NCBI GenBank assembly: GCA_000402775.1 | Contig: AQSC01000061.1 | Span: 6,496 to 70,495, forward strand | Direction of reading: 5' to 3' | Length of the DNA: 64,000 nucleotides | Origin: Euryarchaeota archaeon SCGC AAA252-I15 | Lineage (GTDB): Archaea > Altiarchaeota > Altiarchaeia > IMC4 > SCGC-AAA252-I15 | Part shown: in pieces, positions 16,886-48,924 of the stretch | How positions within the stretch are numbered: the stretch's first letter is position 1 | Layout: each line of letters starts with the position of its first letter | The notes under the pieces: model-generated | Told to the model about the DNA's origin: nothing | Database searches by the model: none | What the model saw: the letters and a program-made list of their open reading frames with translations, nothing else | Made by a program: the position numbers and the translations under genes

Positions 16886-16961
16886 AGTATAATACCACCA
16901 AAAAGAACAAAAAAGTGAGATAATTAGTGTTATCTGTAATTCCCGAGGGCGCAAAAGAAAA

Positions 16962-17717: not shown

Positions 17718-17776
17718 TGTTGAACACTCTAGTTCGAAATCCTTTTATTTTTGATCTCCTAATCAGAGTTCATATT

Positions 17777-18553: not shown

Positions 18554-18585
18554 TAGCTTTTAAATTTAGAATCGATCTGGATCAC

Positions 18586-22347: not shown

Positions 22348-23307
22348 ATGAAAGCATACGTTGTTGGAGGATCAGGTTACACGGGTCGTGAGCTTATAAG
22401 AATCCTCGAATCTCATCCGAAAGTCGAAGAGGTTAAGGTGTCCTCTACGAGATTTTCCGGGAAGAAAGTGTCTGACGTTCATAAAACTCTCACGACAAGC
22501 CTTGTTTTCGAAGAGTTTAATGCATCAAGTGCAAATAGTTGCGACGTTGCTTTCTGTTGTGTGCCGCATACTAAGGCCATGGAGATCGTAAGTGAGCTTG
22601 AAACAAAGGTTATTGATTTGAGCGCCGACTTTAGGTTGAAGGATGTTTCAGTCTATGAAAAGTTTTACGGTGTCAAACACTCGAATCCAAAACTCGTGGA
22701 AAATGCGGTTTACGGTCTTCCAGAGTATTATCGCAAGGAGATTAAGGATGCCAGGATCGTTGCAAATCCGGGGTGTTATCCCACTGCAGTAGTGTTAGCT
22801 GTGAGGCCTTTAATTGAATCCTTTGACGTGCAAAGTGTAATCGCGGATGCGAAAAGCGGGGTTTCAGGGGCGGGAATGGTTAAGGAAGATGAGTATCAAA
22901 AGTTTGTGGGAGATGAGAATTTTAAGGCTTACAAGCTTACAACACACCAGCACGCTCCGGAAATAGATCAGGAGGTGGGTTTTCCTGTTTTTTTCACGCC
23001 GCATCTCGCCCCCTTCGATCAGGGAATTTTCACAACAATACACGCCTTAACACTTGCAAATCCGCAGGAAGTTAAGAGATGCTATGAGGAAAAATACAAG
23101 GATGAACCATTTGTGAAATTAGTAAAAGAGCCTGATGTCGCCTCCGTCAGAAATACGAACATGTGCCAGATTGGGGGGTTTGAATCCGACGGGAAACGGT
23201 GTGTTATCACTTCTGCAATTGACAATCTGGTTAAGGGAGCGAGCGGACAGGCAGTGCAGAACATGAACCTGATGTTTGGATTCAAAGAGACGATTGGTTT
23301 AGTGTAA
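22348..23307 (+). CDS. argC: N-acetyl-gamma-glutamyl-phosphate reductase (ArgC/LysY family)
   Basis: MKAYVVGGSGYTGRELIRIL is the N-terminal NAD(P) Rossmann motif. The catalytic-Cys motif is ANPGCYPTA. 319 aa. Confidence 0.85.
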   Translation: MKAYVVGGSGYTGRELIRILESHPKVEEVKVSSTRFSGKKVSDVHKTLTTSLVFEEFNASSANSCDVAFCCVPHTKAMEIVSELETKVIDLSADFRLKDVSVYEKFYGVKHSNPKLVENAVYGLPEYYRKEIKDARIVANPGCYPTAVVLAVRPLIESFDVQSVIADAKSGVSGAGMVKEDEYQKFVGDENFKAYKLTTHQHAPEIDQEVGFPVFFTPHLAPFDQGIFTTIHALTLANPQEVKRCYEEKYKDEPFVKLVKEPDVASVRNTNMCQIGGFESDGKRCVITSAIDNLVKGASGQAVQNMNLMFGFKETIGLV

Positions 23308-23308
23308 G
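23272..23308 (+). repeat. Direct repeat, copy 1: the native 3' end of argC (ATGTTTGGATTCAAAGAGACGATTGGTTTAGTGTAAG)
   Basis: 37 nt encoding MFGFKETIGLV*. It recurs at 25439..25475 with two substitutions, both synonymous. Confidence 0.85.
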
Positions 23309-23452
23309 ATTAACAAAGGCGAGTAAACGAAGCTACGAGCGTAGCGAGCAGTTTGGGGAAATTTGAAGTTTCCCGTTTAGTCGCTGTTAACTGAACGAAG
23401 CCAAAGGGGTGAGGAAAGTCCCATAAGGGATGTAGAGTTGCGAGCCGCCGCC

Positions 23453-25297
23453 TTAGATTATTAATGATAGGCTGATGAGATTCCAACCTGTAAGTAATTC
23501 ACAGAGGTGGCAGCGGTATACGCAACCTGACATGATATTACTTGAATCATTGTAGTTGAAGACTGTGTTACATGTGTTATTGTCTCCTGTTGTTGCATCG
23601 CCGTCGTATATGTCGTAGTATGCACCCCCTGAGATATTGTTAAAACAAAAGTAGTTATCATACAATGCATTCCCTGTGCTGAGATTGTCAATGTAAGAGC
23701 CCCAAGTATTGTAATCTGCAGTATTGTTGATTAAAGTGTTATTAGTTGATTCTAAAATTATTATACCTGCACTGTTGTTCCTAGCTGTGTTTGATGTCAA
23801 TGTGTTGAAATTACTAGATGATATGAGGATAATCCCTCCCTCATCGTTGTTAGTTACAACATTATTAGATAGAGTATTGTTACTCGACAACTCAAAAAAC
23901 ATGCCATATTCGAAATTCGATACATTACATTTTTTAACCGTTACATTACTCACATTTAGTCCAACAATACCAAAATAAAGCCCTTTTCCTTGTATTTTAT
24001 GTCCACGACAATCTAACGTTATGCTGTCGGTTCCAACGATTAATCCCTCCAACGAATCCTTATCAGAGCAATTAAGGTCGGCATTCAAACTAATGTCGGA
24101 CGTTAAAATCTCACCGCAGGGGACACAGGGATTCACACACCCTGTCGTGTTCGTGTCATTGTATTTGTAGGTTGTGTCACAGGTGTTGTTTTCACCTAGC
24201 GTGTTACCATTTATATAGATGTCATTGTAGATAGTCCGTTGTAGATTATTAAAACAAACGCGATTACCATACAATTTATTTTCCATACTTGAATTATCAA
24301 TGGACAAACCATGACGTAGATTATAGTTGACTGTGTTATTACTAAATGTGTTATTGAAACTATATGGAATAAGTTTTATTCCAAGTCCATTATTGTTAAC
24401 TGTGTTTTCTTCGATTTGAGTATGGCTAGATGATTCGAGATATATTCCCTCATCATCATTATTGCTCACCGTGTTGTTTATTATTAAGGAATTAGTAACT
24501 GTATCGAAGAAAACACCAACATCATTTCCAATAATACTATTATTGAAAAGCTTATTGCCAGTTGACAAGAAAGAAAAAACACCATAATCGCCGTTAATAA
24601 TTGTGTTAGATATTATTGAATTGTAGTCACTTGACGGGCGCATGTATATACCTTCGTCATTATTGGATATAGTGTTATATGAAAGAATATTACCATCCGA
24701 CTCATCAATAACGATGCCATCATCGCTATTATCATTGATAAAGTTGCCAATAATCGAGTTATTGTGTGACCCAACAAGATAAATCGCTTCTGCACTCCCG
24801 TTAATAATAGTATTGTTTAAGATTGTATTGCTTTCACCCAAAAGTATCCCTATGCCTCCATTGTTATTTGTGAGAGTATTAGATGTGACATTGGTTAGAT
24901 TTGATGAAAAAATGAGGATAGTACCCTCACTAAAACTCAGAGTATTATTGTAGAGGAGACAATTATTCGATAAATCTAGGAATATGCCGTAGTCAAAATC
25001 CCGGATTACACAATTCTTTATTGTAACGTTTGAAATATTATGAAGCTGGATGCCAAAGAAGAACGGCTCACCTGAATCATTCAATGACTCATTTCTAGAA
25101 ATCAAATAACCATTACAGTCAAGTGTGATATCGTCAACACCCATTATCAAACCATGGCCACCGCAGTCAAGATTCGAAGATAAGTTAGTGTCCACAAGGA
25201 TTGTGTCTCCACAAGATACAGCATCAGCTACGGAGATAAGAAAAACAAGTAACACAATACACCTAAAGAACCTACTAGTTACGCCCATATTATCCAC
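23453..25297 (-). CDS. Secreted surface protein with two tandem parallel beta-helix (PbH1/NosD-like) domains, very rich in N-glycosylation sequons, with a C-terminal hydrophobic anchor
   Basis: Signal peptide MDNMGVTSRFFRCIVLLVFLISVADA. Two ~290-aa modules with repeated NxxxN/GIxL beta-helix rungs (NTISNNDEGIYM..NTIINGDYGVF..NSIIGNDVGVFF..NTVSNNDDEGIYL). Cys-rich caps (NNTCDTTYKYNDTNTTGCVNPCVPC / NNTCNTVFNYNDSSNIMSGCVYRCHLC). Dozens of N-x-S/T sites. Ends LISLSLII. Confidence 0.7.
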   Translation of the reverse strand: MDNMGVTSRFFRCIVLLVFLISVADAVSCGDTILVDTNLSSNLDCGGHGLIMGVDDITLDCNGYLISRNESLNDSGEPFFFGIQLHNISNVTIKNCVIRDFDYGIFLDLSNNCLLYNNTLSFSEGTILIFSSNLTNVTSNTLTNNNGGIGILLGESNTILNNTIINGSAEAIYLVGSHNNSIIGNFINDNSDDGIVIDESDGNILSYNTISNNDEGIYMRPSSDYNSIISNTIINGDYGVFSFLSTGNKLFNNSIIGNDVGVFFDTVTNSLIINNTVSNNDDEGIYLESSSHTQIEENTVNNNGLGIKLIPYSFNNTFSNNTVNYNLRHGLSIDNSSMENKLYGNRVCFNNLQRTIYNDIYINGNTLGENNTCDTTYKYNDTNTTGCVNPCVPCGEILTSDISLNADLNCSDKDSLEGLIVGTDSITLDCRGHKIQGKGLYFGIVGLNVSNVTVKKCNVSNFEYGMFFELSSNNTLSNNVVTNNDEGGIILISSSNFNTLTSNTARNNSAGIIILESTNNTLINNTADYNTWGSYIDNLSTGNALYDNYFCFNNISGGAYYDIYDGDATTGDNNTCNTVFNYNDSSNIMSGCVYRCHLCELLTGWNLISLSLII

Positions 25298-25438
25298 TAG
25301 AATTGAGGAATTTAATACTTACAAAAAAACATTTATTGTTCAGCGGTGAGTTAACATTTCAGTGAACACATAATATTCGTTAGAGTCATCGAGACTTAAA
25401 GTCGAGGATGGCTCATTTGTCGTCGGCAAACTCCGACA

Positions 25439-25475
25439 ATGTTTGGGTTCAAGGAGACGATTGGTTTAGTGTAAG
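25439..25475 (+). repeat. Direct repeat, copy 2: a displaced remnant of the argC 3' end (ATGTTTGGGTTCAAGGAGACGATTGGTTTAGTGTAAG)
   Basis: 35/37 identity with 23272..23308. Both differences are third-position and synonymous (GGA>GGG, AAA>AAG). The sequence upstream of the remnant has no argC similarity. Confidence 0.85.
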
Positions 25476-35331: not shown

Positions 35332-35458
35332 AAAAAATACGCCCCACACCACCAAAAAGAGCATAAAGCTTAATAAAATACAGGATAATTGTTGTTATAC
35401 GAAATCGTGCTACGCAGTGGCTCAAACCAAACTTTTATAAATTTATAAGAGATACAAT

Positions 35459-35788: not shown

Positions 35789-36031
35789 TCACGCCACTGC
35801 TCCGCCCGACTCTGTGCTCCATTTCATTCCGCTTGAGGACGCTGCGCTTTCGCTTCACTGCGTTACGCTCACCCTCGTATAACAAAGGATAAAAGGAAAA
35901 TTGCTCGGCTCGCAATTTTCCCAAATTTTTCTTCCACTTCGTTCCAGAAAAACTTCTTTTATCCCTGATGTTAACTGTAATTACGGGGGGGGTTTTGATT
36001 TATATGGATATGTTATATATACTTATATAAG

Positions 36032-36298
36032 ATGGAAAATGTCACTGTTATGCATAGTCCAACGCTTGAATCGGTGTTGATGGTAGAGAAAGCAATCCAA
36101 AAATATAGTGCCGAAAAGGGAAAGTATCAACTTTGGAAGAAGTTACCGCGTAAAATGATGTATCAAACTTACCAAACAATATTAGACTACTTGGCTGAAT
36201 CAGGCAAGATAATAATCGACAAAGACGGTATCGTAATCTGGACATACAATCCGGAGCGGATAAAGAGGCTGATATCTGAGGATTTACTAGTAAGATGA
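36032..36298 (+). CDS. Putative antitoxin of a type II TA pair (88 aa)
   Basis: Immediately upstream of, and overlapping by 4 nt (ATGA), the RelE/ParE-like toxin gene. A TATA-like element (TTATATATACTTATATAAG) lies ~10-25 nt upstream. Confidence 0.45.
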   Translation: MENVTVMHSPTLESVLMVEKAIQKYSAEKGKYQLWKKLPRKMMYQTYQTILDYLAESGKIIIDKDGIVIWTYNPERIKRLISEDLLVR

Positions 36299-36630
36299 AC
36301 AAAGAAAGACGCGTCGGATTCATAACAAAAAAATTAAGGGTAGAATTCGACTCACTTAACAAGGGAAAAAGTAGTGATAAACAACTTTATGAATTCATCA
36401 ACAGGGCAATCGACGACTTGAAGGAAAAACCAACGTGCGGAATAAAAATTCCCAAGAAACTATGGCCTAAAACATACATAAAGAAATACGACATCACTAA
36501 CCTCTGGAAATATGATCTCCCTACTGGTTGGAGATTAATATACACTATTGAAACCGACGAGATAATGATTGTTGCAATAATCTTAGAATGGTTTGACCAC
36601 AAAAACTACAAAAAAAGATTCAACTACTGA
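36295..36630 (+). CDS. relE: RelE/ParE-superfamily toxin
   Basis: The C-terminal motif NLWKYDLPTGWRLIYTIETDEIMIVAIILEWFDHKNY matches the RelE/ParE consensus (LW.YRIGDYRIIY.I.D....V.IL.IGHRKDVY). 111 aa, basic. Confidence 0.6.
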   Translation: MNKERRVGFITKKLRVEFDSLNKGKSSDKQLYEFINRAIDDLKEKPTCGIKIPKKLWPKTYIKKYDITNLWKYDLPTGWRLIYTIETDEIMIVAIILEWFDHKNYKKRFNY

Positions 36631-36695
36631 ACGCCCCCCGCAACTCTGCGCTTCGCTTGCCTCAGCCCTACGGGCCTCGGACGGCTAACAGCGAT

Positions 36696-37910
36696 TTACG
36701 TGTAGTCGGTTAGTCTTTTTTGTTTTAGGATTTCGCTTTTTTCCGTGTATTTTTTCAAGGGTATTCGAAGGCGGGTGGCTGCGTCCTTTAATGCTTCGCT
36801 GAGTGTTTGGAATTTCTTTGGTTTGGACTTCATCGCCCACCTCACGTTTTCCCTGACTTCCCAGACGCCTACAGGCACGACATAGCCCTCGTAAATTTCC
36901 CGGAAAACAATTGCACGAGCCTGCCTTCGCATCCGATCCATTGCCTCGCACACCCCGAATCGGCCGGCATAGTAGCCTCCACCCTCATTTAACGCATAAT
37001 CCCACCTCCCTTCATGTTTCTCGTGCTCGTAAGCTATTTGAGGTTCAGTCGCACCTGACGTCCAAAATGTTTGTGGCGCCCACGCCTCGAATTGCTCAAA
37101 CTCCCAAGCGCCTGGAATAAGCAGTATTTCAAAGTGGTTTTCAAGGTAAGTGTTTGAAAAAAGTTGGAACTCGTTGATTGAAGGGTAATCTCTGATACGC
37201 TTCATCAAATGTTTTCCAAGAATATCATCCACTGCAGTAATGCTCCACCTAGTTGGAACGAGTTTTTTCTTGTCTTGTATTCCGAGGCTTCCTGAAGATA
37301 AGACCCGAGTTAGGTAGTAGACGTTAAAGTCTTTCTCAAATAAAGTCGATAGTGCATACGATGAAGTTACCTCGTCAGAAGCAATATAATCGACTTTTTG
37401 GGGAATTGTAGGGTTGGATGAAACATCAAAACTTAAAAGGTCGGCTGAAGGGCCCATGGGTTGTGAAACAGGGGAGAATGACATGGAAAATGAAGGTTTT
37501 TTCTTAAAATGCGTTTCAACATCAACAGGTTTTACAGACATTGCAATCTGCTGGTTCTCGGAAATAAACCTATTTTTCAATTTCACATTAACCCTGCTTT
37601 TCGACCGAATAAGAGAGGATCTAATGCGAATGATATCTTCAAAACCGAGACTCTGCCAGGAAGAGGGATCATCAGAGATATACACGTCATCTCCGTGCAT
37701 GGAAGTGAGCGGTCCAACAGATACATCCGGCCAGCCGCCCCATCCCACGAAAATTGAGGGGCTTGGTCCAAACATATGACTTGAAAGTTTTAATTCAGAT
37801 GGTTTTTGATATTCAACTTTCTTTAAAATCGGGCAGTAGTGTAAACCGCATAAAAGCCTTCCGCCCTTGCAAGTTAAACACATCTGTCCAGTTAAAGGCT
37901 TCAAATTCAA
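36696..37910 (-). CDS. nreA: NreA-like archaeal DNA repair protein (Nre family)
   Basis: N-terminal C4 motif CLTCKGGRLLCGLHYCP (the CxxCKGxxxLCGxxxCP pattern I recall for Nre proteins). 404 aa. Confidence 0.5.
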   Translation of the reverse strand: MNLKPLTGQMCLTCKGGRLLCGLHYCPILKKVEYQKPSELKLSSHMFGPSPSIFVGWGGWPDVSVGPLTSMHGDDVYISDDPSSWQSLGFEDIIRIRSSLIRSKSRVNVKLKNRFISENQQIAMSVKPVDVETHFKKKPSFSMSFSPVSQPMGPSADLLSFDVSSNPTIPQKVDYIASDEVTSSYALSTLFEKDFNVYYLTRVLSSGSLGIQDKKKLVPTRWSITAVDDILGKHLMKRIRDYPSINEFQLFSNTYLENHFEILLIPGAWEFEQFEAWAPQTFWTSGATEPQIAYEHEKHEGRWDYALNEGGGYYAGRFGVCEAMDRMRRQARAIVFREIYEGYVVPVGVWEVRENVRWAMKSKPKKFQTLSEALKDAATRLRIPLKKYTEKSEILKQKRLTDYT

Positions 37911-37914
37911 GACC

Positions 37915-40017
37915 CTACTTCATTGTAAAATGGTAGTAAGATAAGTTTGATGATCGGATTATATCCTTGAGCCTTGATTCGATAAACTCTGAACTCAGGC
38001 TTCGTCTGTTAAGGTAAATATTAGAAAGGGCTCCGCCGTTTACTATTTTGTGGAATGGTGATTCAACTTCAATCCGTTTTTTAGAGGATATGCGAGCGTT
38101 AGGCCTGACTTGGAATGAATTAGTGTATTTTTTTACTACAATTGAATTTTGAAATCTTTTAGAATCAACATCTGGAAATCGTATAGAAGCTGCTTCGGCA
38201 GAAGTCCTAGCTATTGTGAAAAACAATCCCGACTCCGCATTGAATTCGTCTGAAATACGCTTCATTTTCTGTATAAATCTTAAACCGAATTTTTGAGCTG
38301 ATTTTGATTCATGCAATTCTGATCCTACAGCAGTTGAAACCATTTCGTTCAGACCAACAAAGCCTATAACGTATGCTTGTTTTTCCGGGTTTAGATATGT
38401 TAGGTCGTTTCGAGCAACCTTCTGGGACATGAATGGTAGGAGATTATTTTTTAGGTTTTTTTCGAGAATCTTCTTCTTAAGTAGTAGAATGTTTTTAGCT
38501 TTTAACATTCGATTATAAAGGAGTTCTCGCATTACACTCTCCTTGCCATTTGCCTCATAAGCTATGTGGGGTAGATTAATCGAAATAAGCTGCGCTACTC
38601 CCCCGCGAAGAGTTCCGGGCCGGGCAAGATCCACTAGCATGGAATCATCCGAAGGCATGATGAACGAGCTTCCTTGAAGGCAGAGTATTTTCGGTGAGAA
38701 TTTTCGAGAGGTTATGAAGTAGGGTGTTCGGGTTTTCGCCGCTACTTGGCAGAGTTTTTCAACTATTTCTGATTGTTTTGAAACCTGTTTTTTAGTAATC
38801 CTCACGTTGAATTTAGGGAATATGAATGGTTTTTTATGGTAGTCTCCAGCCAAGTATATGTCGCATAACGTGCTGAGTAGTTGTTCTGATTCCTGAGTGA
38901 AGTCCCCGTAAGTTAAGCCTCCGCTAATACGACCTTTTGGTAAAACCGCTGGAACATCCCGGAGAAAATGCGGGATCTCGATATCACAGTCAATGCTTGA
39001 GTACACGACTTGACCTCCACGCATCCCATACATTTGACTTAACTCGAACACAAACATTTGGGCAAGCTGTTTAACCTTATCTTTAGAAAGCCCTCTAATG
39101 TATGGAGCCATGAACGTGTTGAAATAATTTAATCCTTGCCCACCACTGCAGTTTGTTTGAGCTGCAGCCAAGATTCGGCCAGCGTGTAAAAAAGCCACTT
39201 CAGCCTTTTTAGGAGGCCCAGAAATCGCTGTGTATTTTCCTGTTCCATCAGGCTTGAAACCGTTTTTCAAGAAAAATCTAAGGTCGTGTGAAAAAGAATG
39301 AGAACGCGTTGCGAAGTAATCCAAATCGTGTATGTTCAATTCGGCCTTCATGTGAGAGTCGGAAAGACTCAACGGCAAAACATTAATCAGGGTGTATTCC
39401 CTGCTAATCTGATCTCCCATAAGCTTGTGAACAGCCTCGGGATTAAACTGCCTTCCATTAGTATGCTTGAAACCACTGTCAATCAAATCATGCACGTCGT
39501 GAACAGGCATTCCAAGACGAGTATAGCGGGCACGAGTATTCTCCAAACCATGCTCTAAAAGCTTAACGTTAACGACCTCCCTGATAAGGGGTGCGGTAAC
39601 ATAATCGAGTTTAAGCTTTACAAGCTCCTTCTCAACTTCAGAGGCTACACCCTTGGCTAGATCACTGTCTAATTTAGTCTCGGAAATTAGGGAATCGACA
39701 ATACGCTTCTTATTAAAGGACTCGACGATAATCTTGGACGTCCTAACCCTAAGTCCAGTACGCCCCATATAACGCCTCGCAACAGAAGGCTTAACACTAT
39801 AAAGCTCACCATGGATTATGTCTCTGATTTTTTTAGTAGGGATTCCGTCAAATAAAATACGCCTAATCTTCCTCTCGATTTTCGCAGCCTGAGCAAGCGA
39901 AGCCCCTGAATTCATGCAAGACGTTATTAACTTATCTCGGCTGTAAGGCTCAGAGGTACCACTTGCTTTAATAACATTCATAAAAACACCCCAACTGGGG
40001 TTATTATTTGACTCCAA
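37915..40017 (-). CDS. nrdD: Anaerobic (class III) ribonucleotide-reductase-like protein with an N-terminal ATP-cone. The C-terminal glycyl-radical/Zn-ribbon motifs are not recognisable
   Basis: N-terminal ATP-cone (MNVIKASGTSEPYSRDKLITSCMNSG...KIRDIIHGEL). Central 10-stranded-barrel-like region (NIHDLDYFATRSHSFSHDL, AAQTNCSGGQGLNYFNTF). The C-terminus ...KIVNGGALSNIYLNRRS... has no CxxC pairs and no clear RVxGY. 700 aa. Confidence 0.55.
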   Translation of the reverse strand: MESNNNPSWGVFMNVIKASGTSEPYSRDKLITSCMNSGASLAQAAKIERKIRRILFDGIPTKKIRDIIHGELYSVKPSVARRYMGRTGLRVRTSKIIVESFNKKRIVDSLISETKLDSDLAKGVASEVEKELVKLKLDYVTAPLIREVVNVKLLEHGLENTRARYTRLGMPVHDVHDLIDSGFKHTNGRQFNPEAVHKLMGDQISREYTLINVLPLSLSDSHMKAELNIHDLDYFATRSHSFSHDLRFFLKNGFKPDGTGKYTAISGPPKKAEVAFLHAGRILAAAQTNCSGGQGLNYFNTFMAPYIRGLSKDKVKQLAQMFVFELSQMYGMRGGQVVYSSIDCDIEIPHFLRDVPAVLPKGRISGGLTYGDFTQESEQLLSTLCDIYLAGDYHKKPFIFPKFNVRITKKQVSKQSEIVEKLCQVAAKTRTPYFITSRKFSPKILCLQGSSFIMPSDDSMLVDLARPGTLRGGVAQLISINLPHIAYEANGKESVMRELLYNRMLKAKNILLLKKKILEKNLKNNLLPFMSQKVARNDLTYLNPEKQAYVIGFVGLNEMVSTAVGSELHESKSAQKFGLRFIQKMKRISDEFNAESGLFFTIARTSAEAASIRFPDVDSKRFQNSIVVKKYTNSFQVRPNARISSKKRIEVESPFHKIVNGGALSNIYLNRRSLSSEFIESRLKDIIRSSNLSYYHFTMK

Positions 40018-40018
40018 G

Positions 40019-40636
40019 TTAAAATACGTTTAGATTCGAAGATAGGATTACGCCGTCAGAATCCTTGAAAAGTCCTTCAACAACACCTTCCTGCCTGAAA
40101 TTATAATTTTTCAGGTGCCCTATTGTAGCTTTCTGTTTATTAGGTAGAACAGTCCAAATTTTATTTCGACCAGTCTCCTTTGCAAGAGTAGATACTGTTT
40201 CTACAAACTCACCTATTTTTTGAGGATCATCCCCGTGAACGACAGGCCCGTGCATGTAAATGCCATCTTCCTTGTCGAAAAGAGTTCCTACAAAACCCTT
40301 ACTAGATTCACCCCCCTTAAGGCAAAAAAGGCCTCCGATTAATGCTAATGCTTTGATGAAAAAGATTGATGATGGGGGGGAGAAGGCTGATTCATCCAAT
40401 TCCATGATTCGTCCAAGATCATTTTGACTGGCGAACTTTACATTAGAGTTTTCGTTAATCGAGGGTGAGTCCTCGTGTTTAGTAATATTTCTAGTTTTTG
40501 GATTTGGTTTTACAAAACCAAGGTGATTATCTGAATTACTCTTGCCACGCAAAAGTGTATTAGCCACAAAGCCTCGAGAAAAAGCATCAGATAAACCATC
40601 CGAATCATCCACAGAAACAGTGAATTCAGAATCCAT
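40019..40636 (-). CDS. GNAT-family N-acetyltransferase with a low-complexity N-terminus (205 aa)
   Basis: IMELDESAFSPPSSIFFIKALALIGG is a GNAT beta1-alpha1 start, followed by beta-strands and ...GVVEGLFKD...VILSS. The start codon lies 12 nt downstream of the 13-nt poly-G run on this strand. Confidence 0.5.
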   Translation of the reverse strand: MDSEFTVSVDDSDGLSDAFSRGFVANTLLRGKSNSDNHLGFVKPNPKTRNITKHEDSPSINENSNVKFASQNDLGRIMELDESAFSPPSSIFFIKALALIGGLFCLKGGESSKGFVGTLFDKEDGIYMHGPVVHGDDPQKIGEFVETVSTLAKETGRNKIWTVLPNKQKATIGHLKNYNFRQEGVVEGLFKDSDGVILSSNLNVF

Positions 40637-41190
40637 TGCCTCTTGTGCCCCCCCCCCCCCGAAATAAAATCTTTTGTAATGAGCAATCTGTCCACTCCAA
40701 CACCATAATCCGCAAAGCCTGTGAAATATGCAGGATAAAAATCTGATGCTTGAAAACCCATTTTATTTAAATAGCTGTTAAGTTGAGGGCCATTTCGGGG
40801 GCTAGCCAACGTGTAAAACATTCCAGAGCCGTCATGGACTGATATTTCACGTGTCCTTTCAGCCATCATAGTCCCAATTCCCATTCCCTGAAACCCTGGA
40901 TTTACAGAAGTCGAGAGGGGAAAAACTCTTTTATCACGGTCAAACAGTAAAGCCTTAACACCGGTTAATTCCTCATTTAGTCTAGTACCCAATAGTACAC
41001 CCGCTCTTGAGGCAATAAACATAGTGTGTGGAGTTTCACCGTTTCCCCCAAAGGCCGTGTCATCAACAACGGATGCGGCAAAAACAGCAGCAAGTGTTGA
41101 CAAATGTTCTACATCACAAGCCCTGTAGGATGAAGGTAAGTCCCCAACCCTATTTTTTACTTTTGACATCCTGTTTTTTTGATAATACAA
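40510..41190 (-). CDS. GNAT-family N-acetyltransferase. The genuine domain is roughly 41190..40662; the track ORF runs past a poly-G tract into out-of-frame hydrophobic read-through
   Basis: GNAT motif A (VNPGFQGMGIGTMMAER) and ...DRLLITKDFISGGGG at the poly-G (40648-40660 on the + strand are 13 C). The residues after GGGG (HKRQWILNSLFLWMIRMVYLML...) look like non-coding read-through. Confidence 0.5.
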   Translation of the reverse strand: MYYQKNRMSKVKNRVGDLPSSYRACDVEHLSTLAAVFAASVVDDTAFGGNGETPHTMFIASRAGVLLGTRLNEELTGVKALLFDRDKRVFPLSTSVNPGFQGMGIGTMMAERTREISVHDGSGMFYTLASPRNGPQLNSYLNKMGFQASDFYPAYFTGFADYGVGVDRLLITKDFISGGGGHKRQWILNSLFLWMIRMVYLMLFLEALWLIHFCVARVIQIITLVL

Positions 41191-42928
41191 GCATTGACTC
41201 AGACGTTTTAAATCTACCAGCCAACCTGTCTGGAGTTACAAGATACTTAGCAGAAAACCCAGCATTAAAAAGCATGTCAATCAACTTGTAATCATGGGCG
41301 TAAACCAACACAGACCCATTCTGAAAAACCTCATTTGAAAAATTAGATTCTTTCCCAATAAAAGGGAGGTTATGCCAATTAGGCTCAGAAGGAATATCAA
41401 AACCCAACCTCTTCTCAATAACCATCCTGTGTTTACCACGACCATAATAATCAAATAATACACGTTTACCAGAAAAACCACGCCAATTCAAATCAACAAT
41501 CATTGGAGGAAAATCACGTGTATCACAAGTCGTCCAAACCTTATTTTTATTATAAGCGAGTGCAACCTGCTCTACAAAGTCCATTAAATAATACCTAAAA
41601 TCATATTCATCATATTGCGGTGCTACGGCAACGCCATGACAAAACAAACCCCCGTTAATATCAAAGACTAATGGGACATCACCCACAATATTTCCTTTAG
41701 AGTCCTTCACACAAATCAAAAGGCCTGTCCGCATAATCCGGATGAGAGTATGCGGCTCTTCTCCCGCAACACCTTGAACTTGTTTCTCAAGATTTGATGC
41801 TTTTATAGCATCGTGAGGACCACTGGCTATGAAAGCGGATAAATCCATGAAATCAGATTTCATATTGATTAATGGGGGAGAAGGCTTCCAGGATATAGAA
41901 TGTTTTTTCGCGATAAGATCGATTCCCCCATCATCATTAATTAATCCTGAAATCTCACATCCCTGGTTAGTAACGTATTCCTCCAAATCAATTTGACTAT
42001 TAAGAGATAAATGCAGACCCTCTTTCTGATTACCCCCCACATGTCCTTGGGATTGATTTATATTGCTAGAAGGAGGACGCTGAACCAAAAGCTGATCAAG
42101 ACCCTCCCCGAAATAATTTTTTAAGTGCTCGGTAATGGTGAAACCGCCAGTAAGATACCTTCTTAGCGAGTTAATGTTACCCTCCTCAAGAGTACCCCAA
42201 AAACGTTTGTGAGGATACAAAGAAATAGCCTTCTTAAGGATTCCAGCCCCCACACCATAACCCTCAAAACCCGTCCTCACACAAATATTGAATATGTAAA
42301 AACACTCATTACGATCATAAATGAATTCTCCAAAACCAATAAGATCCCTAAACTGATCCCGCACACCCAGCAACATGCTAGTAGTCGCAAGCATTGAAAG
42401 AGAGAACATGTCTCCCGACTCAATACCAAAAAGCTCGCGATTTAATTTAAGAGCCTCAGAAACCTGAGTTGGATTAACAAGTAATTCATAGATGTAAGGT
42501 GACTTCTGTAAGCTTAAAGCCAGACTATTTTTTTCAACCCCGAATTTTTCAGAGATATAGTCTAAAGCCTGCTGTGTTGAGCCCGCCTTATGAACCATGG
42601 AGTTAAGACTATCGAGAATAAAAGTGGATTTAACAAGTGATTTAAGAACATTAGGCTCAATCCTACCCTTGTAAATACGAGCGATCACGGAGTTTAATCC
42701 CTTATACAACACCTCGTATTTATCATCTTTTAATAAGACTTTGAAAAACTTATTCGAATCCACTTGAGTGATGTGGGCTAAATCGTCAAGCTCAAGCGAT
42801 ACGAATCCGTAAGCCTGTATGCTCTCAAGCCTATCAGATACAACCTGATCAAGTACGGAATTAATACGATTAATAGTCGTAAATTCTCCGAATTCCTTCA
42901 GGCCCAAATCAGATAGTTCATCAACCAC
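41150..42928 (-). CDS. Large (592 aa) protein with an internal GNAT acetyltransferase domain and a second GNAT-like C-terminal region
   Basis: Central CVRTGFEGYGVGAGILKKAISLY (GNAT motif A). The C-terminal region has GNAT-like beta-strands (IVGDVPLVFDINGGLFCHGVAVAPQYDE). The N-terminal ~200 aa have no recognised domain. Confidence 0.45.
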   Translation of the reverse strand: MVDELSDLGLKEFGEFTTINRINSVLDQVVSDRLESIQAYGFVSLELDDLAHITQVDSNKFFKVLLKDDKYEVLYKGLNSVIARIYKGRIEPNVLKSLVKSTFILDSLNSMVHKAGSTQQALDYISEKFGVEKNSLALSLQKSPYIYELLVNPTQVSEALKLNRELFGIESGDMFSLSMLATTSMLLGVRDQFRDLIGFGEFIYDRNECFYIFNICVRTGFEGYGVGAGILKKAISLYPHKRFWGTLEEGNINSLRRYLTGGFTITEHLKNYFGEGLDQLLVQRPPSSNINQSQGHVGGNQKEGLHLSLNSQIDLEEYVTNQGCEISGLINDDGGIDLIAKKHSISWKPSPPLINMKSDFMDLSAFIASGPHDAIKASNLEKQVQGVAGEEPHTLIRIMRTGLLICVKDSKGNIVGDVPLVFDINGGLFCHGVAVAPQYDEYDFRYYLMDFVEQVALAYNKNKVWTTCDTRDFPPMIVDLNWRGFSGKRVLFDYYGRGKHRMVIEKRLGFDIPSEPNWHNLPFIGKESNFSNEVFQNGSVLVYAHDYKLIDMLFNAGFSAKYLVTPDRLAGRFKTSESMLVLSKKQDVKSKK

Positions 42929-43002
42929 AATAACAAATTGTTTTTAAGAGAGAAAAAGGTGTGGTGGGTGAATATTAATTAGCCTTCACATACTCGTAAA
43001 TC

Positions 43003-44199
43003 ATGATCGAATTGTTGGTTTTAGTTTTAATAGGTTGCATACTTGGCGTGTTGACGGGGATTACGCCGGGTATTCACGTCAACATGGTGTGTCTTTTAGG
43101 TTTTATTTTGTATAATGGTTTGGGTTTGACCTCGACTCAGTTTGCGGTTGCTATGATTTCAATGGCTGTGACGCACACTTTCCTGGATTTTATTCCTGCC
43201 ATATTTATCGGAGTGCCGGAAGAACAGACTGCCCTTTCGGTTTTGCCGGCCCACAGGATGGTTTTAGAGGGGAACGCTTATGAAGCGGTTAAAATCACTG
43301 GTTACGGTAGTATAATCGGGTTGTTTTTCGCAACCGCGTCCATTCCCGCAGCATTATATTTTGTGCCGAAAATATATTTTCTATTAAGAGGGGTGATTGT
43401 GTATGTACTCATAATTGCCGTTGCATACCTTATCTTTAGAGAAAAAACATGGAAGAAAAGATTGTGGGCGGTGACAATCTTTACTCTCGCTGGATGGTTG
43501 GGTTTTGTGGCATTCAACCAAAAAATAATTTCTGAAAACCTAATCCTCTTTCCCCTTTTCACCGGACTCTTCGGATTAAGCACTATTATTTACTCACTTC
43601 GACAGGAAAACACGTTCATACCTCAAAAGGAATACGCAATAGTTGACGTTGACAAAAATTTTGTAACTTCCGGGTTCTTAGGGGCGTTAGGAGGAATGTT
43701 GGTCGGAATTCTCCCGGCAATGAGCCCCTCCCAGGTTGGAATAATACTTACTAGATTTTACAAGGAGAGTACCAGGAACTTTTTGGTTGCGGTTTCGGCA
43801 ATAAACACTTCAGATGCCATATATTCTTTCATAGCTCTTTACACGATTCGAAATCCTAGAAGCGGAGTTGCCACAATATTGGGCAAGATAATTGATTTGG
43901 ATTACAATACACTGCTTTTATTTCTAGGTGTAATAATGTTTACTGCACCCATTGCCCTTGCATTGCATCTTAAAATCGGGAGAATCGCATTGAAATTCTC
44001 CCGAAAAATAAATTTCAGAAACCTAAATATCGCAGCCTTTGCAATCGTTGTATTCCTAGTATACTACTTGACTGGTTTTTGGGGTTTTTTATTCGCAATA
44101 ACGGCCACTGCATTAGGATTGTTGCCTATTCAAACCGGAGTTAGCAGAACACACTCGATGGGAGTATTAATTCTTCCAACAATAATATACTTTTTATAG
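43003..44199 (+). CDS. TctA-family (DUF112) tripartite tricarboxylate transporter-like membrane protein
   Basis: The N-terminal GCILGVLTGITPGIHVNM fits the TctA G-x-x-P-G signature. About 10 TM helices. 398 aa. Confidence 0.55.
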   Translation: MIELLVLVLIGCILGVLTGITPGIHVNMVCLLGFILYNGLGLTSTQFAVAMISMAVTHTFLDFIPAIFIGVPEEQTALSVLPAHRMVLEGNAYEAVKITGYGSIIGLFFATASIPAALYFVPKIYFLLRGVIVYVLIIAVAYLIFREKTWKKRLWAVTIFTLAGWLGFVAFNQKIISENLILFPLFTGLFGLSTIIYSLRQENTFIPQKEYAIVDVDKNFVTSGFLGALGGMLVGILPAMSPSQVGIILTRFYKESTRNFLVAVSAINTSDAIYSFIALYTIRNPRSGVATILGKIIDLDYNTLLLFLGVIMFTAPIALALHLKIGRIALKFSRKINFRNLNIAAFAIVVFLVYYLTGFWGFLFAITATALGLLPIQTGVSRTHSMGVLILPTIIYFL

Positions 44200-44227
44200 T
44201 TGATTCTAAGGTTATTATGTGTTGTAA

Positions 44228-44824
44228 ATGAAATCAATAGAGGTTATTATTTCAAGTTTCAAGGTCCTTTTTGATAACATAGTGGCATTTTTCCTTGCTT
44301 TTCTTATCTGGATTTTCCTCGGATTTTTTATTATTCCAATACCACCCCTATTATTCGGCTTGTATTACATGGCGAATAAGGCAATTAAAGGAGATAAACC
44401 AAGTTGGAAAGATGTGTTTAAAGGATTTGATTATCTCGTAATATCATGGGCTCTTGTAATATTAGGTTTTATAATATGTGGTATTTTAATTGGAATTTTT
44501 CTTACTATTGCATATTCAGATATTGGAGGATTTTTTATTATCCTAATATCCTTTCTCGTCACTATAATTATCGTTGGTATTATGGGTTATGTATCCAATT
44601 ATGCAATACCTGTAATAATCGAGAAAAACGTTGGATTATTCCCGGCGATAAAGGAAAGCATATCACTATTTAGGAGGAAATTCATCACCACAATAACAGT
44701 AAGTGTACTTATAATAATAATTCAATTTGCCCTAGTTATGACTGTTATAGGGATCGTAGTAGCTTATGTTATTCCAGTCGTTATTCCAGCCATTGTATTT
44801 ACAAAACTAGCAATAGAAGAGTAA
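44228..44824 (+). CDS. Small polytopic membrane protein (198 aa), paralog of 31031..31555. It sits between a host gene 3' end and that end's duplicated remnant
   Basis: PPLLFGLYYMANKAIKGDKPSWKDVFKGFDYL plus 4 TM helices. It shares this loop and the overall topology with the 31031 protein. Confidence 0.55.
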   Translation: MKSIEVIISSFKVLFDNIVAFFLAFLIWIFLGFFIIPIPPLLFGLYYMANKAIKGDKPSWKDVFKGFDYLVISWALVILGFIICGILIGIFLTIAYSDIGGFFIILISFLVTIIIVGIMGYVSNYAIPVIIEKNVGLFPAIKESISLFRRKFITTITVSVLIIIIQFALVMTVIGIVVAYVIPVVIPAIVFTKLAIEE

Positions 44825-44918
44825 TAATTCCGTCTTCATTAATATTGTGCCATACTCTCCTCTACGGATAGGAAAAACTTCGTTTACCTGCTTTTTGTTA
44901 GTTGAATTATTCTTAAAT

Positions 44919-45002
44919 ATGTTAAGGCGTTCTGATTCAGGTCTACCTCTCTCCATGGGAGTTTTAATTCTTCCCACGATAATATACTTTCTAGGATTAT
45001 GA
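44919..45002 (+). repeat. Remnant of a TctA-family 3' end. It is a 28-codon ORF ending ...SMGVLILPTIIYFLGL* and duplicates the last 13 codons of gene 43003..44199
   Basis: 44955..44990 versus 44158..44193: 32/36 identical. All four differences are synonymous third-position changes (GTA/GTT, CCA/CCC, ACA/ACG, TTA/CTA). Confidence 0.8.
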
Positions 45003-45192
45003 AAAGCCGAACGAAAGTCTTTATTGGGATATTGATTTTATTGACTGCGAAACAATTAGACACCGTTGTAGGGCCGGTATTGGAGAGTCTGATCTTGATT
45101 ATCCTGATTGTTTATGGGATTTCGATTTTAAGAGGTAGCTTCGACGTTAAGAGAATTAAATAGGTTATATTTCATAAACAACAAGGTATATC

Positions 45193-45723
45193 ATGCGCTT
45201 AATAATCACATTTTGCTTAATCGTACTACTTAGTGGTTGCGTGGGTACTGATAAGACGGGAGATGATTGGGATTTACTAATCAATGCAATAGAAGGCAAA
45301 GATGCTTCAATTTGTATTGAAATGAACAAATCGCATATGAGAGACACATGTTTTCAGCTTACTGCTCAATTATTGAAAAATTTGTCTATTTGTTTAAGAA
45401 CTGATGATGTTTGGATGGGGAATCTGTGCAAAAAAGCTGTTGCTAGGGAGACAAAGGATTTAACTTTGTGTGAAATGTTTGAGGATCCCGTATTTAAGGA
45501 TTATTGTTTGAGAGATGTGATTATAGAACAGCGGAATTCTCAATTTTGTGATAAAATACAGGATAATAGTGTTAGAGATGATTGTTACTACGCAGTGGGG
45601 ATTGATTTAAACAGGTCTTTCATATGTGATAAAATCATTGACAAATACAGGAAATATGAGTGTTATTTGAAGACTGGGGGGGAATATAAATCGTCAACCA
45701 CAATAGTTGGAAATGAAAGTTAA
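45193..45723 (+). CDS. Cys-rich secreted or lipid-anchored protein (176 aa) with five repeats of a ~30-aa Cys-containing module
   Basis: Lipobox-like N-terminus MRLIITFCLIVLLSGCVGT. Repeated (R/K)D.C(F/Y/L) motifs: RDTCFQL, GNLCKKAV, KDYCLRDV, RDDCYYAV, KYECYLK. Confidence 0.45.
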   Translation: MRLIITFCLIVLLSGCVGTDKTGDDWDLLINAIEGKDASICIEMNKSHMRDTCFQLTAQLLKNLSICLRTDDVWMGNLCKKAVARETKDLTLCEMFEDPVFKDYCLRDVIIEQRNSQFCDKIQDNSVRDDCYYAVGIDLNRSFICDKIIDKYRKYECYLKTGGEYKSSTTIVGNES

Positions 45724-46753
45724 CGGAATGATTAAGGGTTGCCTCACTGAAAGACGCATAAACAAGAAAGTATTAGAGGACATGTATAGAGATGGTTTTC
45801 TATATGCTACATTTGGGGAATATTTTAGAAGAAGCCATGGATACGAGATATTCAAGGTTCCAATGAATGCTGAATTCACATGCCCCAACTGGGACGGTAG
45901 ATTAAGCAACAAGGGGTGTATATACTGTCCAAACCTCGCCAAACAATTCACATATGAAAGCTTTCGAAGAGTGATAGGAGATGGTTTGAGGGCCCAACTC
46001 AAGGACCAAGTAGCATATTACAAGAATAAAGGTGCTGGAGACAAGGGTTTAGTATACCTTGCTTTTGGAACTAACACTTACAAGCCTGTTGACGAGTTAA
46101 AGGAGATATTTGATTTGGCTTTGAATCACCCCGACGTTGTAGGACTATCTATAGGCACGAGACCTGATTGCCTTCCAAAAGAGGTTTTAAACCTTCTTGG
46201 AGGTTATGTGAAGGAAGGTTATGAAATTTGGCTTGAATTAGGACAGCAAAGCGTACATTATCATACAACAAATCGGATAAACCGTCAGCACGGTTTAAGC
46301 GAGTCGATAAATGCGGTAAATGAAGCTAGAAAGAGGGGTATACTCACCCTAATCTTTTTGATTTTTGGCCTCCCGTATGAAACGCCGCAAGAAGTTATTG
46401 AGACTGCAAAAGTGGTTTCGCAGATGAATGTTGACGCGGTCAAACTATACCCCTGCTTGGTTATGAAAGATACAAGACTTGCGAAAGATTATTCTAATGG
46501 AAAATACAGGCCGATAAGCCGGAGAGAGTATATTAAAACAATAGTTGATTTTCTGGAAAACGTCAGCCCCCACATGTTAATACAACGAATTTCAAAAGAC
46601 TGCGGACTAGACGGTAAAATAGTTCCAAACTGGAACACACACCGTTTTATTGTGGGGCCTGAAGTGGAGAAAATAATGGAGCTTAGAAATACCAGACAAG
46701 GTAGTAAATACAACATAGGTTTGGATGTTGAAGAGCTTTCACCCTTATCATGA
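45707..46753 (+). CDS. Radical SAM protein, TIGR01212 (YhcC-like) family
   Basis: TCPNWDGRLSNKGCIYCPN matches the CPN.DG...GC.YC cysteine motif of TIGR01212. A TIM-barrel-sized core follows. 348 aa. Confidence 0.65.
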   Translation: MEMKVNGMIKGCLTERRINKKVLEDMYRDGFLYATFGEYFRRSHGYEIFKVPMNAEFTCPNWDGRLSNKGCIYCPNLAKQFTYESFRRVIGDGLRAQLKDQVAYYKNKGAGDKGLVYLAFGTNTYKPVDELKEIFDLALNHPDVVGLSIGTRPDCLPKEVLNLLGGYVKEGYEIWLELGQQSVHYHTTNRINRQHGLSESINAVNEARKRGILTLIFLIFGLPYETPQEVIETAKVVSQMNVDAVKLYPCLVMKDTRLAKDYSNGKYRPISRREYIKTIVDFLENVSPHMLIQRISKDCGLDGKIVPNWNTHRFIVGPEVEKIMELRNTRQGSKYNIGLDVEELSPLS

Positions 46754-47650
46754 AAGAATTCCAAATTCTCTGGCGCCTTCAAGTTTTAAGAAATCCTTAA
46801 GTTTATAGATTCTCCGGGATTTCTCAAGAACTTTAACACCTTCATTCAAAATTGAAAGTAAATTTGTGTTGTTCCGGTCTTGTGATTTAGAGTTCTCGCG
46901 ATAAAGGTGAGCGGTGAATCCACCCTCAACCGAGCAGGCGAGACTACCCTTGGAAATTTCCTTGATTATGTTATCACGATTCTTACTTGAAGAAGAGAGT
47001 AATGCGGACAAATTCATTGGAGAGTAGAAATTACCACGGTAAACCTCATTCCACAAAAGCTCTCGTTCATTCGACAGTACTGTTTTAAACCCCTTTTTCT
47101 TGTTTATCGGGGTTTCAATTATTTTTACTTTGAATTCTTCCATTTCACCACTTCGAAGAAGGTTTGTGTCCCTCGAAACCGCAAATCCCCCATAAAAACA
47201 GGCACATAGTTTAGCAAAAGACAAGCCTGAAATATTTGATAGTTTAAGGATGAGATTTTTTTCCAATACTCTGTCGGATACTTGGAAAAATTGTTCTCGA
47301 AGATACTTGTCAACACGCAACTCATGTATAGAGCCGTTTTTCCGTGCAATATCTCCTAAAAGAGATGCGACTGCGACAATGCATGATGATTCCAGCTCGC
47401 CGGGAAGACCAAGAAGTTTAGAATCGACGATATTAATTCGTGCACCACAACGTAGATTAAAATAATTAAGTGTGTTTTTAGCAACCTTTCGTACGAAAGA
47501 TTTAAGGTGGAGCGGTGTGTTGACGATTATTTTTTTCCCAGCAGTTACTTCTGAATCGAATATTACTTTCTGATCTAAATTGAATGCAGCACCCAAATCA
47601 CCTATAGGGGCGATTAAATCAAACGGAGTTCCAGAATTTGCCTTAGTCAT
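46748..47650 (-). CDS. GHMP-kinase-family protein, possibly the archaeal GHMP-type shikimate kinase
   Basis: Gly/Ser-rich phosphate-binding-like segment LGLPGELESSCIVAVASLLG (the P.GSGLGSSAA-like motif). 300 aa. An aromatic-pathway gene (pheA) lies in the same window. Confidence 0.4.
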   Translation of the reverse strand: MTKANSGTPFDLIAPIGDLGAAFNLDQKVIFDSEVTAGKKIIVNTPLHLKSFVRKVAKNTLNYFNLRCGARINIVDSKLLGLPGELESSCIVAVASLLGDIARKNGSIHELRVDKYLREQFFQVSDRVLEKNLILKLSNISGLSFAKLCACFYGGFAVSRDTNLLRSGEMEEFKVKIIETPINKKKGFKTVLSNERELLWNEVYRGNFYSPMNLSALLSSSSKNRDNIIKEISKGSLACSVEGGFTAHLYRENSKSQDRNNTNLLSILNEGVKVLEKSRRIYKLKDFLKLEGAREFGILS

Positions 47651-48924
47651 TTCCGATTAAATCTTACGAGTGGCTTACTTAAATGTCTTCTAGCCCGGGG
47701 AGGAACTTCAAACCACCCCAATTCAATATCCCGGAAGACCTTAGTTTTCATGACTTTTCGGATTTTATTATTGCATTTACGACATTTAAAACCCTTGTTT
47801 TTTCCTGAAGAAGTCATCTTCCGACCGCAGCATAATGGGGGAGTATCAAGAAGAATAGACTTCAGCTTTTCAATGCAAATTTTCTCTAAGTTAAGCGTGT
47901 TTGAATGCCTTCCAATACCACCGTAAACAATAATCTCATCACCAGTACACAATTGCTTCATTACATCCCTAAACTCCCCTGTTTGACGGTAGGCTCCGCA
48001 ATCGATTTCACCAGTTTCATCCATTAATTTGAAGAAAACGTGACCACCTTGAATCGTTTTTGGATTACTTGAAACTTTACCTGAAATTTTCACACAATCG
48101 AAGGGTTTAATTTCTCTTATTTTCTTCCATTTAAGATGATCATCTGAAGCTTGGTTTGTCTCAAATACTTGAATAAATTCAATTTTTTCTAAGGGTATAA
48201 TATCATTCCAGGCTTTCTTAACAACCATAGAAGACTTCCCCCTGATTCCACAAAAAATGGGGTCAGGACCGTGCGGGGTAATAAGAATTTGATTTGATAC
48301 AATATCTACACTATCAAAACATTTTGGATAAAATTTTTCATTCATAGAAAAAACACTTTGAAAATTGATTTTCCTTTCCTGTCCATAATTCCTTTTTTCC
48401 CGATACGCAATCAACTCAAATGTCTTATCATCAAGAACTGCCCCACACGCAGCTAAAGCACCGATAATTCCCCGACCATTTTTAAATTTTATTACTTCAG
48501 CCCCGATTTCAACTGCAGTATCCTCAGCTTCAATAATAGAAACATGCTCACTTACTACCTTTCGATAGAATTTTTCAAGTATTATTTGTTTTTTCCTGCT
48601 TAATTTTGGGACAAAAGCAATTCCGGGGTTTGTTTTTTTATGTGATAGATGAGAGTAAGTCGTGATGTAATCTATGACTTCTTTTCTAATTTTATGGTTA
48701 AAGTCGGTTACTATTGCAACAGCCCCATTTCCACGTGTTTTGTAGGGTATGTTTGGGTTAAGTCTAATTAGACGAAGAGTTGATTTAATTTTAAATTTTT
48801 TCTTAAGTTTCGCTGCAAGGTATGTCGTACACATTCCGTTGGGAGAATCCGTATCATCAATTCCAATAATCATGTTTTCTCTTTTATTTTTTAGGTTAAT
48901 TAATTTATAGGTTAAATAAATCAT
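47647..48924 (-). CDS. tiaS: tRNA(Ile2) 2-agmatinylcytidine synthetase TiaS
   Basis: N-terminal MIIGIDDTDSPNGMCTTYLAAKL ... LIRLNPNIPYKTRGNGAV matches the TiaS DUF1743/kinase-like start. C-terminal Zn ribbon CCGRKMTSSGKNKGFKCRKCNNK. 425 aa. Confidence 0.6.
   Translation of the reverse strand: MIYLTYKLINLKNKRENMIIGIDDTDSPNGMCTTYLAAKLKKKFKIKSTLRLIRLNPNIPYKTRGNGAVAIVTDFNHKIRKEVIDYITTYSHLSHKKTNPGIAFVPKLSRKKQIILEKFYRKVVSEHVSIIEAEDTAVEIGAEVIKFKNGRGIIGALAACGAVLDDKTFELIAYREKRNYGQERKINFQSVFSMNEKFYPKCFDSVDIVSNQILITPHGPDPIFCGIRGKSSMVVKKAWNDIIPLEKIEFIQVFETNQASDDHLKWKKIREIKPFDCVKISGKVSSNPKTIQGGHVFFKLMDETGEIDCGAYRQTGEFRDVMKQLCTGDEIIVYGGIGRHSNTLNLEKICIEKLKSILLDTPPLCCGRKMTSSGKNKGFKCRKCNNKIRKVMKTKVFRDIELGWFEVPPRARRHLSKPLVRFNRK

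Follow-up and report, generated by a model that had tools for sequence, protein, structure and literature searches.

How does the end of a gene come to stand twice on one chromosome, with a different gene lodged in between? The question is raised by a 64,000-nucleotide (nt) stretch of Euryarchaeota archaeon SCGC AAA252-I15 (contig AQSC01000061.1, positions 6,496 to 70,495; hereafter the window), in which the 3′ end of a TctA-family permease gene is found again downstream, beyond a gene for a membrane protein. The evidence supports reading this structure as the att-type integration scar of a minimal gene cassette without a recombinase, a kind of scar that recurs in Altiarchaeota. The chromosome itself belongs to that group, its TctA and ArgC proteins having their nearest named relatives in Altiarchaeota metagenome-assembled genomes (MAGs), and the archaeal markers TiaS, Nre and NrdD flank the locus. 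The features of the TctA locus are as follows.

43003..44199, + strand: TctA-family permease gene, 398 amino acids (aa); Pfam PF01970, E = 4e-51
44154..44196, + strand: left repeat, attL-like; putative regenerated TctA 3′ end, with a new Leu-stop (TTA TAG) at 44194-44199
44194..44950, + strand: inserted DNA, 757 nt, missing from the sister genome L020 (BLAST)
44228..44824, + strand: cassette gene, encoding a 198-aa multi-pass membrane protein; sole long open reading frame (ORF) of the insert
44825..44950, + strand: cassette 3′ spacer, with no significant structure
44951..44993, + strand: right repeat, attR-like, within the putative displaced original TctA end (..SMGVLILPTIIYFLGL-stop, to 45002), which has the family-typical ..GL-stop
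44999..45163, + strand: 54-aa membrane-protein gene, with its start codon overlapping the displaced TctA stop

A repeat search of the window returned the pair as a 43-nt direct repeat (44154-44196 / 44951-44993) with 88% identity, a spacing of 797 and five mismatches, all five of them synonymous in the TctA frame (SMGVLILPTIIYFL). A sequence-only reading of the window had described 13 codons of the TctA end, repeated 797 bp downstream inside a 28-codon orphan ORF, with four differences in 36 nt, all synonymous. The spacing is as it said; the repeat spans 14 codons, the remnant being the last ~14-16 codons of the gene, and the orphan ORF over it is 27 aa long if it starts at the ATG of 44919 and 51 aa long if it starts at the GTG of 44847. 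Within the 36-nt span (44158-44193 / 44955-44990) the differences are indeed synonymous, but they number three rather than four, the remaining two falling in the Ser and Leu codons on either side. No part of TctA is better conserved than the repeated segment (invariant R382, H384, L389, P392 and T393). Composition-preserving shuffles of the window (n = 30) yielded no comparable repeats within 6 kb, against six in the real window, and a chance origin of the repeats is excluded. Four of the six are internal to a gene for a 1210-aa AAA+ ATPase (26831-30463, − strand), which contains three internal repeats of ~870 nt, 72-76% identical, corresponding to three AAA modules; its repeats make up all other long direct repeats of the window.

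The DNA between the TctA repeats is compositionally foreign, with a GC content of 0.30-0.33 against 0.39-0.43 in the flanks. As the sequence-only reading had it, a single gene lies there, and its product is related to the protein of 31031-31555 (31% identity, E = 3e-17). The cassette protein belongs loosely to a GPDPase_memb / DUF7847 / UPF0259 / DUF975-like superfamily, and a homolog search found no relatives above 50% identity outside the species. In the spacer the predicted fold is no better than that of shuffled sequences (z-score +0.87, also +1.04), and a TATA-like archaeal box, CTTAAATA, at 44912-44919 may represent a promoter.

That the cassette is an insertion is seen from an empty site. 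A scan of genome collections recovered L020, a contig of a sister MAG that is 95-97% identical in nucleotide sequence to the window and to which contig L072 also belongs; for L020 the identity is 95% upstream and 92.5% downstream of the site. In L020 TctA is 400 aa long and ends ..IIYFLGL-stop, its stop overlapping (ATGA) the start of the 54-aa gene, and this gene is succeeded by a 176-aa gene and then by a radical-SAM gene. By BLAST, L020 270-7764 corresponds to window 36695-44193 and L020 7725-10566 to window 44951-47792, such that the window equals L020 plus 757 nt (44194-44950) and a 40-43-nt duplication. The predicted empty-site sequence for TctA is ..CCAACAATAATATACTTTCTAGGATTATGAAAAGCC.

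The two repeats differ in what they join. In the window TctA ends ..IIYFL-stop, which leaves it 2 aa short of its relatives, mostly 400 aa in length with ..YFLG[FLI]. For the last 66 nt, ending at 44193, the left repeat matches L020 perfectly; beyond that the two diverge. The downstream copy still overlaps the gene after it by ATGA, just as TctA does in L020. Because the TctA of L020 keeps both the ..GL-stop and this overlap, the downstream remnant reads as the displaced original gene end and the in-gene copy as a regenerated end, 2 aa shorter. In more distant relatives the radical-SAM gene directly follows TctA (L017) or unrelated genes do (L016), and the gap after TctA is therefore a variable spot. 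Taken together, the empty site, the variable neighbours and the low GC content identify the TctA cassette as a derived, foreign insertion at such a spot. The 54-aa ORF is conserved in L020 and in L004-type strains. A 70-aa homolog also adjoins TctA in L015 (6165-6377, − strand; the same contig as L021), where it is encoded on the other strand and shares 39 nt with the TctA 3′ end; a small membrane-protein gene of this type is thus a recurrent neighbour of TctA in either orientation.

The sequence-only reading had likened the TctA locus to a second one in the window, where a gene for a beta-helix protein follows argC. The likeness holds, and here too the sister MAG supplies the empty site.

23272..23308, + strand: left repeat; putative regenerated argC 3′ end, including the stop
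23309..25438, no strand assigned: inserted DNA, ~2.13 kb, missing from sister contig L072
23453-25297, − strand: gene for a 614-aa beta-helix/NosD protein (PbH1; Pfam) in the argC insert
25439..25475, + strand: right repeat; putative displaced original argC end, overlapping the convergent MatE 3′ end by 9 nt
25466-26800, − strand: MatE gene, convergent to argC

The argC repeat (23272-23308 / 25439-25475) is 37 nt long with two mismatches, both synonymous. In L072, argC (7731-8690) and MatE (8682-10016) overlap by 9 nt and no other DNA separates them; relative to L072, the window has an extra 2132 nt and a 35-37-nt duplication of the argC end. Small cassettes inserted at gene 3′ ends with a displaced remnant, as had been proposed from the letters, are thus borne out by empty sites at both TctA (L020) and argC/MatE (L072). 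No argC remnants were found in the more distant relatives L062-L065. In L065 an IS1595-family transposase gene (1295-2230, − strand) lies directly downstream of argC, and two other contigs of the L065 lineage break just past argC; the 3′ side of argC is therefore a variable spot in several lineages.

A third, independent case strengthens the suggestion of recurrence. The downstream flanks (up to 8 kb) of ~40 Altiarchaeota TctA loci were searched for a second TctA C-terminus, and one clear hit was obtained, in L034 only, where TctA is 55% identical to that of the window. Here a TctA-end repeat of 66-69 nt (87-88% identity) brackets a 0.9-kb insert that encodes only a UPF0175 antitoxin-like and PIN-domain pair. 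The data thus support recurrence of the architecture, twice at TctA in distant lineages with unrelated cargo and once more at argC. In all three cases the homology ends at or near the stop codon, as would follow if the synteny of donor and recipient ended there. Short repeats in L026, L037 and L044 were also considered as gene-end duplications and rejected, since they are protein motifs conserved between paralogs. Just past the displaced TctA end of L034, at 10197-10436, a 13-mer (GTTAGGCACTACA) occurs four times at irregular spacing, and the contig then ends.

The synonymous differences bear on where the second gene end came from. Summed over the three repeat pairs, 13 differences are synonymous and 2 non-synonymous. 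Under a null model in which the duplication arises in place, the in-gene copy accepts only synonymous changes and the remnant drifts freely, ~40% of differences are expected to be synonymous. The excess is significant for the three pairs together (P = 2.7e-4) and for TctA alone (P = 0.008). Moreover, the TctA remnant departs from the outgroup L020 at four sites, each of them a third-codon position. Both copies are best explained as working gene ends that evolved in different lineages. The sequence-only reading had called the remnant selection-shaped; its synonymous pattern is real, but selection on the remnant is not needed to account for it, and a change at the nearly invariant Met386 in the L034 remnant fits a remnant without constraint of its own. 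Orthologous copies could have been brought together by incoming DNA that carried a TctA end, or by later overwriting from other strains.

The second of these routes has a counterpart in the population. Co-occurring strains vary at three sites of the in-gene repeat (44178, 44181 and 44190) and at one of the remnant repeat (44954), and at three of these four polymorphic sites one strain's copy has the base of the other repeat. In addition, the segment 45025-45642, which covers the 54-aa and 176-aa genes, occurs in co-occurring strains as two alleles ~15% apart in otherwise near-identical flanks. The L004-type allele is almost identical to the sister species L020, which indicates recent allelic replacement by recombination. 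These shuffled repeat variants and the two-allele segment show that recombination with diverged lineages is active at the TctA locus.

On balance, and with considerable room for doubt, we favour the view that the repeats are attL/attR-type products of the single-crossover integration of a small circular DNA that carried a look-alike of the gene end. The ancestral TctA would have ended ..IIYFLGL-stop, with the stop overlapping the start of the 54-aa gene. The foreign DNA would have been small, most simply a ~0.8-kb circle bearing a single membrane-protein gene together with a look-alike, ~43 nt long, of the end of TctA. A crossover with the chromosome inside the look-alike, of the Campbell type familiar as the classical single-crossover insertion-duplication of suicide plasmids, would leave the insert between direct repeats. 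The left repeat would stay on the body of TctA and regenerate a working end, the incoming copy giving the Leu-stop and a product 2 aa shorter. The right repeat would be the displaced original end, staying with the downstream gene and keeping its start context intact. The predicted circle junction is ..GGTCTACCTCTCTCCATGGGAGTTTTAATTCTTCCCACGATAATATA[C/T]TTTTTATAGTTGATTC. Because the insert encodes no recombinase, the crossover would have been catalysed in trans. The catalyst may have been an integrase encoded elsewhere or since lost, as in the decayed elements termed cis-mobilizable elements (CIMEs), or host homologous recombination acting on the short, conserved homology of the TctA end. The argC/PbH1 and the L034 TctA/toxin-antitoxin arrangements may have been made in the same way. 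The sequence-only reading had named both a site-specific system and homology-driven capture; neither a recombinase nor a motif common to all cassette junctions (the latter it had proposed to look for) was found, and we leave the two unranked.

Several observations weigh against single-crossover integration of a circle. Integrase, transposase or other recombinase domains (Pfam) were found neither in the inserts, nor in the large ORFs of the 64-kb window, nor in 20 kb beyond it. No circular or episomal form was found and no donor locus: the nearest homolog of the cassette protein (P0243, 47% identity) adjoins Sec61-beta, not TctA, while the protein has no match in phage or plasmid collections and the cassette none in scans of viral contigs. 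The longest perfect core shared by the TctA repeats of the window is 12 nt, although it reaches 23 nt in L001/L004-type strains, and the cores at argC and in L034 measure 22 nt and 24 nt; such lengths would suit a crossover core without being diagnostic of one. The in-gene TctA copy equals L020 and the remnant does not, and either position of the crossover fits; the L020 outgroup does not resolve which half of each TctA repeat is native. Both argC repeats carry lineage-specific bases that are absent from L072, and these shared bases fit an in-place duplication or later homogenisation as well as they fit a copy imported or taken from a close relative.

The shared argC bases would be expected from target-site duplication, in which a transposase-like enzyme or some other nuclease makes cuts staggered by 35-70 nt at the gene end, ligation and gap filling follow, and the two copies, identical at first, diverge later. 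Transposon-type insertion at a stop codon does occur in the clade. In L072 (1941-2601) a 153-aa ORF is bounded by 17-nt terminal inverted repeats (AGCCTTGCACAAAAAGT) that abut a perfect 11-nt direct repeat, TCAGGATTTAA, containing the TatD stop, and the unit is absent from the window. It is a transposon- or MITE-like (miniature inverted-repeat transposable element) unit with a passenger gene, and shows that another mechanism, too, sets genes at gene ends in the clade. However, in none of the three cases are the long repeats bordered by inverted repeats, and the lengths of 37-69 nt vary from event to event and are far beyond those of usual target duplications. The 13:2 synonymous excess (improbable with a neutral remnant) and the third-position differences of the remnant from L020 (4/4) also speak against it, and we consider target-site duplication unlikely. 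A further possibility is that the remnant is itself a selected small ORF, either MGVLILPTIIYFLGL-stop or the 27-aa ORF from 44919, which would act as a short membrane peptide or as an upstream ORF coupled through ATGA to the 54-aa gene. Both window remnants start at an in-frame ATG, the TctA remnant ends in the ATGA overlap with a conserved downstream gene, and the population polymorphisms within its ORF (44951 and 44954) are both synonymous, two sites being too few to test selection. Yet no co-directional gene follows the argC remnant for it to be coupled with, the L034 remnant has no ATG start and carries non-synonymous changes including that at Met386, and coupling would need no conserved amino-acid sequence; both the remnant ORF and the 54-aa gene are missing from the gene calls of the loci compared. 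A selected ORF is accordingly a quite improbable explanation.

Recombination may also have acted without a circle, either as unequal exchange in a polyploid cell whose sister chromosomes have diverged or in a one-sided manner, where a linear fragment with a TctA end and the cassette is anchored in TctA and its far end joins illegitimately upstream of the recipient gene end. The strong evidence of recombination with diverged alleles at the locus, the missing recombinase and the orthologous look of the repeat differences are all in keeping with such an event. However, the illegitimate join would have to land 37-69 nt upstream of the stop in three independent events, simple replacement on one chromosome gives a deletion and not a duplication, and upstream in TctA neither microhomology nor a tract boundary could be detected. 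We rate exchange of either form as quite improbable. Practically negligible is the chance that the repeat is an artefact of assembly or the start of a second TctA paralog cut short. The sequence-only reading had named both a truncated paralog and absence from independent assemblies as grounds for dropping its claim, and both are excluded. At least 14 contigs show the identical arrangement; they come from independent ENA, JGI and Logan assemblies of separate samples and by separate assemblers, and those of 61-147 kb among them run through both TctA repeats; the remnant comprises only 14-16 codons and the synteny downstream is conserved. Both the artefact and the truncated paralog were thus rejected.

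The window lineage differs from the sister MAG by four insertions, all at gene ends: those at TctA and argC, one at SpoIIM and a restriction-modification island. The SpoIIM insertion (35328-36694, 1.37 kb, absent from L020) holds a 109-aa membrane ORF and a pair of 88-aa and 111-aa (YoeB-like) ORFs. It sits exactly at the SpoIIM stop (TGA changed to TAA), between convergent genes and without a gene-end duplication. The island (16901-19659, 2.8 kb) encodes an N6/N4 methylase, a DpnI-family nuclease and a D12 methylase, and replaces 424 nt of the sister genome. At its right edge a 51-aa ORF (19559-19714) is the C-terminus of a 152-aa gene intact in L072; this ORF was considered as a displaced aminotransferase end and rejected, being a remnant by truncation, not by duplication.

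Three of the four insertions (the argC insert, the island and the 35.3-36.7 kb insert) share an element of ~150 nt, copies of which are located as follows.

19421-19570, + strand: full copy
23306-23450, − strand: full copy
35798-35979, + strand: full copy
36639-36694, + strand: partial copy, ending exactly at the insertion boundary

The three full copies are related with nhmmer E values of 1e-28 to 1e-38, and a hairpin (GGGAAA..TTTCCC then CCAAA) is conserved among them with compensatory changes. Every copy lies in DNA absent from the sister genome, two of them immediately past the 3′ end of a cassette ORF. Neither the sister contigs nor 20 kb of flanks contain the element, which has no Rfam match, and no known RNA family reached the gathering threshold in the window. 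A metagenome scan gave six hits, judged to be chance matches, and a viral-contig scan gave none. The TctA spacer weakly resembles the tail of the element (local alignment score 36, matched by 1 of 300 shuffles), a similarity that was not significant by nhmmer. These data point to a common source pool for the inserted DNA. The element is not treated as a recombination site, because it is not consistently at the junctions and is not significant in the TctA cassette.

Known integrative systems offer partial parallels. Archaeal elements integrate in 3′-distal portions of protein genes, the repeats of crenarchaeal elements measuring 29-69 bp, as reviewed in a survey of Thaumarchaeota (PMC6563490), and a regenerated target with a displaced fragment is the logic by which islands are recognised under the Islander principle (PMC4383910). 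The cassettes described here resemble such elements in their position at the extreme gene end, in the regenerated and displaced repeats, in the single-copy empty site of a relative and in a cargo of foreign composition. Their repeats (37-69 nt) fall within the crenarchaeal range, and the stop-codon region is replaced, as in NitEve-E2 (PMC6563490). They differ in having no integrase or mobility gene, in their size (0.8-2.1 kb with one or two genes, where many are usual) and in their imperfect repeats (88-95%), and no excised form is known. CIMEs, decayed integrative elements that have kept attL and attR and lost the genes for integration and transfer (PMC5704250), are alike in being att-flanked cargo without an integrase at a gene 3′ end, which could be moved in trans by a related integrase. 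However, CIMEs were defined in Firmicutes from integrative and conjugative elements and integrative and mobilizable elements, and often lie in tandem with an intact element. Here neither a parent element nor a tandem partner nor a cognate integrase came to light, a second TctA end occurring only in L034 among the ~40 loci (flank up to 8 kb), a result bounded by flank length and by sampling.

Campbell insertion shares with these loci an insert flanked by a duplication of the homologous segment, hybrid repeats and independence of a dedicated recombinase. In contrast, the homology at these loci extends over only 37-69 nt and contains mismatches, and no natural source of such circles was found. 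DNA transposons and MITEs agree poorly, since the TctA, argC and L034 inserts have no terminal inverted repeats and are flanked by imperfect repeats of 37-69 nt. The cassettes are like those of integrons in being small, promoter-poor single-gene units without a recombinase, in their toxin-antitoxin cargo and in the structured ~150-nt element carried by most of the window insertions. They are unlike them in lying scattered at gene ends 8-20 kb apart, rather than arrayed at attI beside intI, and no IntI-like protein was found. Moreover, the TctA spacer has no attC-like fold, and the ~150-nt element, with its hairpin, lacks matching RYYYAAC / GTTRRRY core sites at its ends. In a study of archaeal integrons, Altiarchaeota are named only as the root of the tree and not among the integron bearers (PMC9668308). 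It is conceivable, albeit improbable, that an unrecognised cassette-mobility system is at work, in which small circular cassettes of one or two genes with a short mimic of a conserved 3′ gene end home again and again to the ends of certain housekeeping genes. In that event some cassettes would carry the ~150-nt element, the targets would be TctA (in two lineages, 55% identical) and argC, and the recombinase would come from another part of the genome, from a virus or from a plasmid.

The unusual features of the locus are the tiny inserts, the lack of an integration enzyme and the reuse of the same gene in a distant relative; otherwise it is a familiar integration scar. Gain and loss of accessory genes are poorly documented in streamlined uncultured archaea such as Altiarchaeota, and the locus provides an example at single-nucleotide resolution with both occupied and empty sites. 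Single accessory functions (a membrane protein, a surface beta-helix protein, a toxin-antitoxin pair) have been placed at the ends of housekeeping genes with the neighbours undamaged, even where these overlap. The locus also advises caution, as a pseudogene fragment that appears shaped by selection may be an orthologous gene end that recombination brought in. Should a genuine site preference underlie the recurrence at TctA, such repeats could serve as markers to map the insertion of flexible genes in Altiarchaeota and to seek the recombinase. If a dedicated cassette system did prove to exist, it would be an archaeal counterpart of integron cassettes that targets gene ends rather than attI.

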